Shown here piece by piece: positions 20,333-23,199 of a stretch of DNA of 64,000 nt; within the stretch, counting starts at the first letter, position 1; every line of letters begins with the position of its first letter. The stretch lies in the NCBI RefSeq assembly GCF_024521635.1, contig NW_026250418.1:434001-498000 (forward strand), written 5' to 3'. Source of the DNA: Tricharina praecox (lineage: Eukaryota). The notes under the pieces are model-generated. The model was not told the origin of the DNA and did not search any database. It saw only the letters and a list, made by a program, of their open reading frames with translations. The position numbers were made by a program, and so were the translations under genes.

Positions 20333-23199
20333 ATGTCTCGCCACAAGTTTGTCCGCAACATGGATCTTGGCGCGGGTTCGTCTCATCCCTCCACACGATC
20401 GGTCTATTCCGTAGCTAAATAACGTCTGCGATAGAACTCGACGACGACTATGACTATGACGACGGAGAAGACGACGGCATGACCGAGGAGGAGAAACAGC
20501 AGATGATTACGGCGCTTAGGGCGGTGCGAGAGCTGCTCGGCGGCGAGGAGTCGAAAGCCGTCGTGTCGGACAAGGATATCGAAGAGTCGCTGTGGTATTA
20601 CTATTTCGATATCGCAAAAACGGTGGATTACGTCTTGAGTGAGTATTGGGGGAGGGAGGGGGGCGTGAGTGGTGTGCGAGTGCAGGCTGATGGTCGAAGA
20701 TACACATATGAATGCCGGAGCGAAGAAGAAGAAGGGGAAGAAGAAAGGTAGCTATTACTTTCCGTTCCCTCTCTGTTTTTTCTGCACAATTCATGCATAC
20801 CATACCTCGGACAAGAGCTTGGGGGAGTGGGTGGGTGGGTGGGTACTTGACGTAATATCACAGGCTCAGCGGTTGGTCAAGGTCTAGGGTTCGCGTTCGG
20901 GTCTTCTCCGGAACGGTGGTCGTCAGCTACGGAACAGGGGCTTTTCGTGGATTGTCCGTGGGGCAGGGTGCCGCGGGATCGGATGGGAGAGCTGGTGGGG
21001 GTGCCGATGGAGGGGGCTACCAGCGGTCTGCTGGGCGGCTCGGGGAAAAGCTCGAAACTGGCGGAGTTGGCGAGGAAAAGGAAGGAGAAGGCTGCGGCGA
21101 CCGCGGCAGCCGCGAGTGGTGCCGCGGAGATGAAGACTTCCGTGGCTATTCTGTCGCGGTTGAATCAGAAGGCGGAGGCTACGGGTGGAGATACACCGCC
21201 GTTGCCATTGCCATCACCACCGCAACAAGAAGCAGTGCCGGCCCCTGCTCCACCGACGCTGACGCCGACGCCATCGGAAGAGAAGACCGCCACCGTCGAC
21301 CTTGACCAGCCGAAGGCGAAGGAGAAGACACGGGATGCATTTGAACCCACTCCCATATCCGTGCCCGAAGGCTTTACCCAGCAAAAGCCACTGGGAGCAT
21401 CACCTTCTAGCTTTGCGAAATCTATCTTTGGGGAGAGGATTACTTTGCGGCATGAGATGGGTTTTGCTGACGGGTGTTTGTTCTTCGTGTCAGGAAACAA
21501 AGAAACATCGGGAAAGCCGGATCCGTTTGCGGGGCCGAGTCCGGATGATGTTGTCGTGGCTGCACAGAGCTCTAGTAAAGGTGCGTAGTCTAGATTATGG
21601 CTTCTCTTGGGAGGTTCTAATGGTGTGGGGTAGGGTTGAATAAAGGCAAGCCCGCTGCCAGGGAGACGGCGGCAAAGGTTGGGGAAGACCTAAAGGCGCT
21701 GACCATCGATCATACGCCGGTAAAGAAGGTCGAGAAGATTGATGTCCTGAAGGTACATCGCGAGTCGAATGCTAAGGAGAATGTCAATTTTGTTGTCGTG
21801 GGGCATGTCGATGCTGGGAAGAGTACATTGATGGGGCGAATGCTATACGATTCCGGCGCGGTCGACGAGCGGTCCATGAGGAAATTCCGACAAGAGAGTG
21901 AGCAGATTGGCAAGGGGTCGTTTGCACTGGCTTGGGTTATGGATCAGACGGAGGAGGAACGGACACGGGGCATTACGATAGACATCGCAACAAACCACTT
22001 CGAGACCGACAAGGCGGCGTTTACTATCCTGGATGCGCCAGGACATCGTGACTTCATTCCCAACATGATTGCTGGGGCGTCGCAGGCGGACTTTGCGGTG
22101 CTCGTTATCGATGCGTCTACTGGTGCTTTCGAGGCGGGCTTCCATCGGCAGGGCCAGACGAAGGAACATACCCTGTTGGTTAGGAGTATTGGCGTGCAGA
22201 GGGTGGTGGTTGCGGTGAACAAGCTGGATACTGTGAGTTTGCCTTGCCGAGCGATGAGGGTGATTGGTATTAATATCTACAGGTTGACTGGTCGGAAGCG
22301 AGATTCGAGGAGATCGTCCAGCAGATGCAGCAGTTCCTTACAAATGCTGGTTTCAACATGAAGAACGTCACTTTTGTCCCACTCAGTGGTCTCACAGGTG
22401 CCAACGTGGTAAAGAAGCCTGCCAAAGGCCTCATCCCGTGGTATAAAGGGCAGACACTACTGGAAATTCTCGGTACTTCATCCCCCCCACTGTCAACATT
22501 CATCCCCCCCACTGTCAACATTCATCCCACTAACCCTCGGCCGCAGAAACATCAAACACCCAGAGCCGAGCAGTTGAGAAACCGCTGCGTCTAGTAATTT
22601 CGGACGTCTTCCGGGGCGGCGTGCAAAATCCCGTATCGATATCAGGGCGCATAGACGCGGGATATCTCCAGGAGGGAGATGTGCTAGTCAGCATACCGAG
22701 CAAGGAGCAGGCCACAGTCAAGGGTATCACCATCAATGAGGAACCGAAGAAGTGGGCTGTGGCAGGTCACAATGTCGTCATTCACCTTTCCGGGATAGAT
22801 CCCATCCATCTCCGGTAACACCTATTCATCCAATTTTCCGAGTATCAACTGATGAAGTGAAATAGCGTCGGCGACGTCATTTGCAGCCCCTCCTCCCCCC
22901 TACAACCACTCAGCACCTTCACCGTGAAGCTCCTCGCCTTCGAGGGTCTCACGCCCATGGCAGTGGACGTCCACAAGGGACGACTCCACGCAGCCGGCAA
23001 GATCTCCGCCATGATTGGGACGCTGGATAAAGCCAATGGACAAGTGGTCAAGAAGAAGCCGAGACATGTGCCACCCGGAGCGCTGGCCAGGGTACAAGTG
23101 CAGCTTGTCGTTGGTGGTGAAACAATACCAGTCGAGAAGGGGAATCGCGTGGTGCTCAGGAGTAATGGTGTTAGTGTTGCGGCCGGGATTGTTGAGTGA
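20333..23199 (+). CDS. HBS1: Hbs1 translational GTPase locus containing a Ski7-like internal exon (20864-21580)
   Basis: [12 protein letters not shown] start; HBS1_[19 protein letters not shown]1 [38 protein letters not shown]-Tu domains II/III. Confidence 0.95.
22477..22528. repeat. Tandem duplication of a 22-nt unit (ttcatcccccccactgtcaaca x2 plus partial) inside an HBS1 intron
   Basis: Two exact copies visible before the ctaac branch site. Confidence 0.85.

Follow-up and report, generated by a model that had tools for sequence, protein, structure and literature searches.

The gene at positions 20333 to 23199 (+ strand) of the analyzed 64,000-nt stretch of Tricharina praecox DNA, hereafter the window, is a SKI7/HBS1 gene that combines an HBS1_N domain, a Ski7-like insert and an eEF1A-type GTPase. 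It is putatively a single gene that gives rise to two GTPase-containing proteins by a choice between two acceptors for the shared donor 20747|20748, a reading to which we assign a probability of about 85%. Use of the proximal acceptor, 20881|20882, would keep 612 nt with the coding sequence of two Ski3-binding helices (H1 and H2) and of the PSxFA exosome motif; the predicted product is a 794-aa Ski7-like adaptor that, judged by homology, would link the Ski2-3-8 complex to the exosome. Use of the distal acceptor, 21493|21494, would remove the same 612-nt segment within a 746-nt intron and yield a 590-aa protein that is expected, again by homology, to serve as Hbs1 in Dom34-dependent ribosome rescue. 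In both mRNAs an 87-nt mini-exon with Patch 4 (PSPDD) would be kept and the 53-nt intron behind it spliced out, and use of the distal acceptor for the Hbs1 mRNA would therefore place PSPDD in both proteins. Acceptor choice is most likely the Ski7/Hbs1 switch in this filamentous ascomycete, and such a mechanism is known from other ascomycetes. Directly observed were the architecture of the gene, its motifs, the long mRNA and the location of the distal site.

Gene architecture and the Ski7-like insert

The gene comprises eight exons and seven introns, all features given below lying on the + strand. Exon 1 (20333-20375) holds the ATG at 20333, downstream of a 5' leader with a (CA)n run, and the intron that follows it (20376-20434) is spliced out in contigs of two RNA runs, X1 and X2. 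Exon 2 (20435-20638, 204 nt) encodes the HBS1 N-terminal domain (Pfam HBS1_N, E=1.5e-20) and is followed by an intron (20639-20699) that is likewise spliced in X1 and X2. Exon 3 (20700-20747, 48 nt) encodes a Lys-rich linker and ends at the shared 5' splice site, GTAGCT from 20748. Downstream of the Ski7-carrying exon, the exon at 21634-22232 encodes a linker plus the initial portion of the GTPase domain (Pfam GTP_EFTU, E=7.3e-47), including the P-loop (21801-21827) and the DAPGH (22032-22046) and NKLD (22218-22229) motifs; its closest named matches belong to the Pezizales, with 63-74% identity. The G domain ends in the exon at 22283-22472, GTPase domain 2 is encoded at 22547-22814 (GTP_EFTU_D2, E=1.8e-5, below the Pfam cut-off), and domain 3 occupies the last exon (22866-23199; GTP-eEF1A_C, E=1.7e-6), which closes with the stop codon TGA at 23197-23199. 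The joints of these three exons are found in the RNA contigs.

An initial annotation of the locus had proposed a combined SKI7/HBS1 gene in which the Ski7-like stretch forms a symmetric cassette exon, and the domains and the insert bear out the combined gene. The phase-1 introns on both sides of that exon, the donor GT at 20748-20749 and the open frame from 20747 to 21634 (561 aa) are also as described. Introns 1 to 4 are all in phase 1, which renders exon 2, exon 3 and the Ski7-carrying exon all symmetric; for this reason the symmetry of the last is not special.

The Ski7-specific segment spans 20882-21493 (612 nt, 204 codons), is an exon in the long mRNA and would be part of the 746-nt intron in the short one; it lies within an X1 contig of 669 nt. 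It encodes a 10-residue insert motif (20944-20973), a 13-residue H1-like stretch (21052-21090), an 11-residue H2-like stretch (21139-21171) and a 13-residue exosome motif of the PSxFA type (21397-21435). The adjoining mini-exon (21494-21580, 87 nt), predicted to be common to both isoforms, encodes a 16-residue Patch 4-like stretch with PSPDD at 21520-21567. The peptides quoted in the initial annotation, of 30 and 16 residues in its two parts, are indeed encoded at 20944-20973, 21052-21090, 21397-21435 and 21520-21567.

The open frame of the insert is more than a chance product: a search of 1.84 billion representative proteins gave 261 relatives at E<=0.001. Searched alone against the PDB, the insert finds yeast Ski7 as its best match (8qcf_L, E=0.07). 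A profile built from 75 insert sequences returned six matches at E<=1, and those at E<0.1 are exclusively chains of Ski7 (8qcf_L, 1.1e-5; 5g06_P, 3.3e-4; 8qca_E, 1.3e-3; 5jea_K, 0.041) and of human HBS1L isoform 2 (9g8m_E, E=1e-4); the one other match is to a deacetylase, which is unrelated (0.18). In the alignments a 13-residue stretch falls on residues 2-14 of Ski7 and PSPDD with its surroundings on Ski7 Patch 4, and H1, H2, PSxFA and PSPDD are all alignable to the Ski7/HBS1L chains. In yeast Ski7, helices H1 and H2 bind Ski3 (PMC10659929), whereas Csl4 is bound through PSPDD of Patch 4 (PMC4942675). The predicted match to Ski7-like proteins was thus obtained, and the alignments support the proposal that the stretch bears Ski7-specific motifs, presumably for Ski-complex and exosome binding.

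Splice junctions in the RNA contigs

The RNA evidence consists of contigs, not raw reads, from runs X1 and X2, which belong to two studies. When placed on the gene these contigs are spliced, with six introns removed at GT..AG boundaries. A further run, X3, has no contig on the gene, and X5 has one 173-nt contig (21734-21900) that carries no splicing information. No transcript ends are listed for the contigs, which do not bear on poly(A) sites after 21588.

In both X1 and X2, exon 3 is joined to 20882. The loose ends at 20879 in the two runs bear letters of exon 3, and a GT..AG intron is obtained only with the joint 20747|20882. The intron of the long (Ski7) mRNA thus spans 20748-20881, with the proximal acceptor AG at 20880-20881. 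The exon had originally been drawn as 20864-21580: the 717-nt interval does have the bounds described (...cacag| and |gtgcgt) and a frame open with both neighbours, but the acceptor seen in X1 and X2 is 20881|20882 and not 20863|20864, and the expected junction 20747>20864 gives way to 20747|20882. The observed Ski7-carrying exon is accordingly 699 nt long, still a multiple of 3, and six codons (SAVGQG) shorter than an exon that starts at 20864.

At its other end, the exon is followed by a 53-nt, phase-1 intron (21581-21633) that is spliced in the contigs, as the proposed junction 21580>21634 requires: X1 contains the joint 21578>21632 (a cut of +2) and X2 has matching loose ends. The position of this intron is conserved in five relatives. 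Read into, it gives GGT GCG TAG, as first described, with the in-frame stop at 21586-21588. A long, exon-including mRNA is therefore present in the contigs, in agreement with the view that inclusion yields a Ski7 with GTPase.

A block of 45 nt at the proximal acceptor is conserved to an unusual degree. An RNA structure at this acceptor (20843-20895) was considered and rejected: a 6-bp CUUGAC/GUCAAG stem would loop out two unused AGs, but the fold is no better than those of shuffled sequences (z=0.78; 159 of 200 fold as well).

Proposed use of the distal acceptor and competing readings

The distal site has the signals of a 3' splice site within 21467-21493: a branch-point CTGAC (21467-21471), located 24 nt upstream of the acceptor, a pyrimidine tract, and a CAG that ends at 21493. 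Both acceptors, 20881|20882 and 21493|21494, are in phase 1 for the one donor, and the distal one is just upstream of PSPDD. The junction 20747|21494 itself is not among the contig records listed, and its use is inferred from graph topology, contig depth and relatives. In X1, a 669-nt contig covers 20719-21521, and the one that follows, beginning at 21492, is about twice as deep (1086 versus 2285; contig depth is a poor measure). An X2 contig also ends at 21521, with the same break at 21492/21521. A simulation at k=31 with the two junctions 20747|20882 and 20747|21494 produces a 669-nt unitig at 20719-21521 and a next unitig from 21492, an exact fit to the observed contig boundaries. The two-isoform simulation also places an out-branch where X1 record 2 ends, one base past 20747. 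By contrast, simulated full skipping, retention or use of 20864 yields boundaries that differ from those observed. A SNP bubble was rejected as the cause of the break, since by the rules of de Bruijn graphs the upstream contig should then stop at 21490, for a SNP at 21491, and not at 21521.

The relatives point in the same direction. The distal site is conserved in six related loci (L001, L003, L005, L006, L008 and L054). Among 51 non-redundant related loci, 25 have a comparable phase-1 site in the 75 nt before PSPDD, compared with 5 and 1 for the other two phases, a count that is partly confounded by the conserved F-A-G codons, which themselves spell TTTGCAG|G. P0007, the closest relative, has 586 aa and an identity of 81%; its 1861-nt contig leaves no room for introns, and its Lys-rich linker runs directly into a 14-residue stretch as in the predicted 590-aa form. 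Of 23 short forms examined in relatives, 17 keep PSPDD.

These observations bear on a reading that does without functional alternative splicing: every mRNA would contain the Ski7 segment, a single protein of 794 aa would fill both roles, and the contig breaks would be accidents of assembly. The inclusion junction is the only one seen directly, most annotated relatives are long forms, and HBS1_N-like, SKLxxLA and PSPDD motifs occur together in 72 of the 120 relatives listed, all of which agrees with a single protein. However, the break falls at one node (21492-21521) in two independent runs and goes with a step in depth, the exact prediction of a 669-nt contig was obtained, short spliced forms exist in relatives including P0007, and the long form of Lachancea kluyveri does not rescue hbs1 (Marshall et al. 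2013, PMC3597508). We regard a single, constitutively spliced product as highly improbable.

The initial annotation had instead proposed a cassette: skipping of the exon (20864-21580, or 20882-21580 as corrected above) to give Hbs1, inclusion to give Ski7 with GTPase, and retention of 21581-21633 to give a Ski7 without GTPase. The sequence bears out the frame, or the stop, of each of these products, with 561 aa for the first and about 333-339 aa for the last, and basidiomycetes use exon skipping, possibly together with a truncated Ski7 (PMC3597508). PSPDD is also absent from 6 of the 23 short forms of relatives, among them a second annotated variant in Exophiala xenobiotica (562 versus 577 aa); full skipping of the mini-exon therefore occurs, or is at least annotated, elsewhere.

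The contigs of the gene under study speak against the cassette. No 20747>21634 joint or loose end is listed among them, although contigs drop rare variants and could hide full skipping or retention at a low level. The X1 contig continues without a break across the spliced joint 21580|21634, contig 9 of X2 begins at 21563 instead of 21577, and the breaks simulated for skipping and for retention (21577/21659 and 21552/21579) are both absent. Nor is the early stop of the retained intron conserved: L001, L005 and L003 reach it at codons 3, 7 and 13, respectively, the 54-nt intron of L006 is open in frame, and P0131 reads through. No listed contig or break fits either 20747>21634 or a retained 21581-21633; a GTPase-less form by intron retention is unsupported, and the origin of Hbs1 by whole-exon skipping is replaced, most likely, by use of the internal acceptor 21493|21494. 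The cassette as a whole appears quite unlikely, and choice between two acceptors is the reading retained here.

An optional 80-nt removal and comparison with known systems

A GC..AG segment of 80 nt (21646-21725, + strand) is removed in part of the X2 transcripts; the contig without it has a depth of 337 against 798 for the unspliced path, and the boundaries are reproduced by simulation. The removal was not seen in X1, and it is conserved only in the closest relative. It shifts the frame and leads to a stop nine codons past the 21633|21634 junction (GLNKEGRED*). It is conceivable, if unlikely, that this event yields, beside the two GTPase-containing forms, a Ski7 adaptor of about 340 aa that has HBS1_N, H1/H2, PSxFA and PSPDD but no GTPase. 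Human HBS1L3 would then have a counterpart in a fungus, generated by splicing of another kind. Alternatively, the removal may be unproductive splicing under regulation, through which the output of SKI7/HBS1 is adjusted.

Among the features of the gene, only the optional 80-nt GC-AG removal and the conserved 45-nt block go beyond the published accounts that were found, in searches aimed at neither of them. For the rest, the gene adds one more lineage to a splicing event already considered ancient and conserved. Annotators should expect two products, of 794 and 590 aa, with PSPDD in both; a plausible-looking cassette-exon model is corrected here into what a specialist would regard as expected biology.

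The closest described system is SKI7/HBS1 of Aspergillus nidulans (Marshall et al. 2013, PMC3597508), likewise a single Pezizomycotina gene with one donor and proximal and distal acceptors. There too the distal acceptor lies just upstream of S3/PSPDD and both products contain the GTPase. The text of that paper gives four introns for A. nidulans, whereas the gene in the window has seven. One of the seven, 53 nt long and immediately after PSPDD, makes the shared piece an 87-nt mini-exon. RT-PCR demonstrated alternative 3' splice sites in A. nidulans, L. kluyveri and S. complicata, the distal one close before motif S3, and PSPDD is kept in both proteins in other ascomycetes (PMC3597508). A Magnaporthe paper (PMC13601938) merely cites Marshall et al. 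2013. The L. kluyveri gene also has two acceptors, and its long and short products were assigned to Ski7 and Hbs1, respectively, by yeast complementation; it differs in being a budding-yeast gene with a single intron (PMC3597508), and the functions of the gene in the window are predicted from homology.

[quoted passage not shown] This is the type that was first proposed for the gene, but its contigs fit an internal acceptor and not a whole-exon skip or retention. Ski7 of Saccharomyces cerevisiae (8qcf, 8qca, 5g06, 5jea) resembles the insert in its H1/H2-like helices and its Patch 4 PSPDD, which align; it is, however, the product of a separate intron-less gene, has no HBS1_N domain, and begins at H1, without the FFxDxPW..GGLLGGS stretch found upstream of H1 in the gene studied here. 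Finally, human HBS1L isoform 3, or SKI7-like (9g8m), shares PSxFA and F..SPDD, which align with E=1e-4, but according to the human studies (PMC5389692, PMC4942675, PMC6143672) the SKI7-like form lacks the GTPase, whereas the main Ski7 form of the gene in the window keeps it.

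Gene structure and the Ski7-like insert

The SKI7/HBS1 gene comprises eight exons at positions 20333–23199 of the forward strand. Exon 2 (20435–20638, +) encodes the HBS1 N-terminal domain (Pfam HBS1_N, E=1.5e-20), and exon 5 (21634–22232, +) begins the eEF1A-type GTPase (Pfam GTP_EFTU, E=7.3e-47), with P-loop, DAPGH and NKLD all intact; GTPase domains 2 and 3 give weaker Pfam matches in the exons that follow. In the 5′ leader, immediately before the ATG, is a (CA)n microsatellite (20281–20336), which was skipped as a repeat in contig mapping. The initial annotation had placed a symmetric exon of 717 nt at 20864–21580. 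The sequence confirms that no stop interrupts the reading frame of this stretch, that phase-1 introns flank it on either side, that retention of the downstream 53-nt intron leads at once to a stop (TAG at 21586–21588), and that all the peptide strings quoted from it are encoded. Introns 1–4 are all in phase 1, so that exons 2 and 3 are symmetric too and the symmetry is not peculiar to the Ski7-like exon.

A Pfam search revealed no family covering 20864–21580. Searched alone against the PDB, the insert has yeast Ski7 as its top match (8qcf_L, E=0.07), with two collinear aligned stretches, one of 13 residues on the first residues of Ski7 and one of 17 residues on ENFNRPSPDD. Exhaustive searching with HMMER brought up 261 relatives of the insert at E<=0.001; of these, 43 reach E<=1e-10 and 6 reach E<=1e-30. 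A profile of the insert and 74 of the 150 relatives listed gave six PDB matches at E<=1, namely four Ski7 chains (8qcf_L, 1.1e-5; 5g06_P, 3.3e-4; 8qca_E, 1.3e-3; 5jea_K, 0.041), the human "isoform 2 of HBS1-like protein" (9g8m_E, E=1e-4) and an unrelated deacetylase (0.18). In the human protein, ARPSAFASTLC aligns with the A-PS-FA-..-FG motif of the family, and F-SASPDDIV with F-GPSPDDVV. Consensus motifs across eukaryotes have been given as A+PShFAahL ("SKI7-like") and ..PF.F..SPDD.. ("Patch 4-like"), with Neurospora crassa as a fungal example (PMC6143672). Ski7 helices H1 (residues 1–12) and H2 (29–34) bind the C-terminal TPRs of Ski3 (PMC10659929), and the binding partner of Patch 4 is the C-terminal domain of Csl4 (PMC4942675). 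The profile matches, together with the motif alignments to yeast Ski7 and human HBS1L, bear out the proposal that the exon carries exosome/SKI motifs, and the Ski7-like reading of the insert therefore holds.

Upstream of the H1-like helix lies a strongly conserved stretch (20941–21042) with the consensus FFxDxPWxxVPxxR...PRGGLLGGS. Across 75 sequences, conservation is 90% or more at F27, D29, P31, W32, P36 and R39, and L55, G57 and G58 do not vary. Yeast Ski7, by contrast, starts at H1 and has no counterpart of this region, which may constitute an additional contact with the Ski complex.

Splice acceptors in the RNA contigs

Two RNA contig sets, X1 and X2, from runs of two different studies, were obtained by one run search with 20200–23400 (3.2 kb); each contains ~0.7 of the sampled words of that stretch. 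Mapped on 20000–23600, both represent spliced RNA with a likeness of at least 99%. The introns at 20376–20434, 20639–20699, 22233–22282, 22473–22546 and 22815–22865 (all +) are spliced at GT..AG in both sets, and the intron at 21581–21633 (+) is removed as well, as a listed joint in X1 and as two matching loose ends in X2. Two low-depth variant joints of X1, one at 20375–20436 (60 nt skipped plus one extra letter; depth 51.6 versus 5213 for the main joint) and the other at 22233–22285 (51 nt skipped; depth 6.8 versus 1520), are probably errors or rare mis-splicing.

In X1 and X2 the exon-3 letters sit immediately before 20879. When the shared AAG is allowed for, 20747/20882 is the sole GT..AG solution, and the exon observed in RNA is thus 20882–21580, of 699 nt, yielding a protein of 794 aa. 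The acceptor originally placed at 20863/20864 was not found in the contigs of X1 or X2, both of which give 20881/20882. A 45-nt block at 20845–20889 takes in the last part of intron 3, the first part of the Ski7 segment and, in succession, three in-frame AGs (20862–20863, 20868–20869 and 20880–20881), of which the RNA contigs use the third. Its identity to the related metagenomic loci L001, L003 and L005 is 44/45, 41/45 and 44/45, with 78%, 57% and 79% for the rest of the segment. We regard the block as a candidate element of splicing control; alternatively, 18 nt of it may be coding in some species, as annotated Pezizales proteins have ..GQG.. there. A hairpin predicted at the block was not significant.

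The contig boundaries point to a second acceptor at 21493/21494. Record 3 of X1 (669 nt, depth 1086) carries exon-3 letters from 20719, passes through 20882 and ends at 21521, where record 8 of X2 ends too; record 4 of X1 (depth 2285) extends from 21492 to 22203 and is continuous across the spliced 21580/21634 joint. The 30-base overlap with doubled depth at 21492–21521 is the k=31 graph pattern of a second path joining. The distal acceptor, gCTGACgggtgtttgttcttcgtgtcag followed by GAAAC, lies in phase 1 and shows CAG, a pyrimidine tract and, 24 nt upstream, a branch point that fits the consensus. Exon 3 (…AAAG) and the genomic sequence just before 21494 have exactly two terminal bases, AG, in common, so the join node falls at 21492.

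Unitigs at k=31 were simulated for a number of isoform sets and compared with the contig boundaries. The proximal and distal acceptors together give a 669-nt unitig at 20719–21521 and a next one from 21492, in agreement with X1 to the base. The boundaries simulated for the proximal acceptor plus full skipping (a 754-nt unitig to 21659, the next from 21577), plus retention (breaks at 21552 and 21579) or plus the 20864 acceptor (a break at 20745/20879) are absent from the contigs. Nor does the full-skip junction 20747>21634, claimed as the source of the short form, appear as a joint or loose end among the X1 and X2 records listed. The contig predicted to bear the distal junction measures only 57 nt and is absent from the records listed; from the contig boundaries, rather than from an observed junction, we infer that the distal acceptor is used in Tricharina praecox. 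Contig depth at face value, a crude measure, puts the share of transcripts with the Ski7 segment at about half in X1 and about two-thirds in X2.

Intron retention and an optional 80-nt segment

A third, GTPase-less form had been attributed to retention of 21581–21633, which was found neither in the X1 and X2 contigs nor in their boundaries when set against the simulation. The position of this intron is conserved in L001, L003, L005, L006 and L008. The early in-frame stop is not: the window and L001 have it at codon 3, L005 at codon 7 and L003 at codon 13. The L006 intron (54 nt) is open in frame, and the related protein P0131 reads straight through the intron. These differences speak against retention as the source of a conserved truncated protein.

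An optional GC..AG segment of 80 nt (21646–21725, +) is removed in an X2 contig that joins 21645 to 21726. It contains CTGAC and is flanked by TAAAG at either end. Depth is 337 with the 80 nt removed versus 798 unspliced, and the X2 boundaries (a 135-nt contig at 21563–21750, the next from 21721) are matched exactly by a k=31 simulation of the removal. The resulting frameshift ends the reading frame early, ahead of the GTPase (…GLNKEGRED), with predicted products of ~340 aa on the proximal-acceptor transcript and 136 aa on the distal one; a route to a GTPase-less Ski7 by this splice is unlikely in our estimation. The X1 contig has no break at 21646–21725, and of the relatives only the closest, L001, keeps the signals (77 nt there), L005 having lost the branch point and L003 being without the donor. 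The removal may be noise, or it may be an NMD-directed splice.

Related loci, related proteins and known SKI7/HBS1 genes

A metagenome scan gave 80 fungal loci, 77 of them with a single match to PSPDD, the Patch 4-like motif at the 3′ end of the insert, and 51 were left after near-duplicates and truncated loci had been dropped. A distal site, defined as an AG no more than 75 nt 5′ of PSPDD, preceded at 8–45 nt by CTRAY and with at least 50% pyrimidines, is present in phase 1 in 25 of the 51 loci, compared with 5/51 and 1/51 in the other two phases. The sites fall into two classes. In the first, the site lies 38–47 nt upstream of PSPDD in the window, L001, L003, L005, L006, L008 and L054, with an ACTAAC branch point in L006 and L008. 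In the second, of 16 loci, it lies directly at F-A-G; this class is confounded in part, since a splice site is already spelled out by the conserved codons TTT GCA GGN.

A search with the GTPase exon scored 7999 proteins, of which 4964 had E<=1e-40, and the best 120 were listed. The nearest of those listed, P0007 (81% identity, 586 aa), is encoded on a contig of 1861 nt and thus without room for introns; the best named matches listed after it are mainly from Pezizales (Morchella, Pyronema, Geopyxis, Tuber; 63–74%). By simple motif tests, 72 of these 120 are long forms (HBS1_N-like, SKLxxLA and PSPDD), 17 have the N domain and PSPDD without SKLxxLA, and 6 have the N domain alone. The other 25 (22 without the N-domain motif, three with the N domain and SKLxxLA without PSPDD) were treated as other model types or partial models. 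Twenty-three short forms, picked by a length of 519–608 aa, were aligned to the predicted isoforms. The PSPDD stretch is kept in 17, including P0007 and the proteins of Morchella (589 aa), Pyronema (591 aa) and Tuber brumale (589 aa), and these fit the 590-aa distal-acceptor form and not the 561-aa full-skip form. It is absent in 6/23; in Exophiala xenobiotica a "variant 2" of 562 aa without PSPDD is annotated alongside a PSPDD-bearing "variant 1" of 577 aa.

In the upstream neighbour (18094–19811, +), open frames encode a zinc-finger signature of the FYVE type (..HHCRNCG..FCG.C..) and, after it, a long tail rich in Pro and Gln, and we take it to resemble an endosomal sorting protein of the Vps27/Hrs type. 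The downstream neighbour (from 25253–25633, +) has a signal-peptide-like start and the Hsp70 N-terminal motif GIDLGTTYS, and is probably BiP/Kar2. In the annotation of two of the relatives listed, P0070 (1426 aa) and P0120 (1512 aa), Hsp70 and HBS1 form a single fused model, which suggests that the two genes are adjacent in Sordariales too and were merged by annotators.

The initial annotation was thus largely right in what it observed, and its interpretation was right on the gene and the Ski7 insert; its account of how the short and third forms arise is wrong, or at least unsupported. The best-supported mechanism is one donor with two acceptors, as already known in ascomycetes. The skipping and retention model matches the basidiomycete type, for which PMC3597508 describes exon skipping and, possibly, a truncated GTPase-less Ski7 via a non-removed intron. 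For the ascomycetes L. kluyveri, A. nidulans and S. complicata, the same source describes alternative 3′ splice sites and places the alternative intron "just upstream of motif S3"; it reports that in L. kluyveri the long form complements ski7 only and the short form hbs1 only. Alternative splicing of SKI7/HBS1 is stated to be conserved in A. fumigatus too (PMC7491326). The ascomycetes described by Marshall et al. 2013 (PMC3597508) have the same arrangement as the gene studied here.
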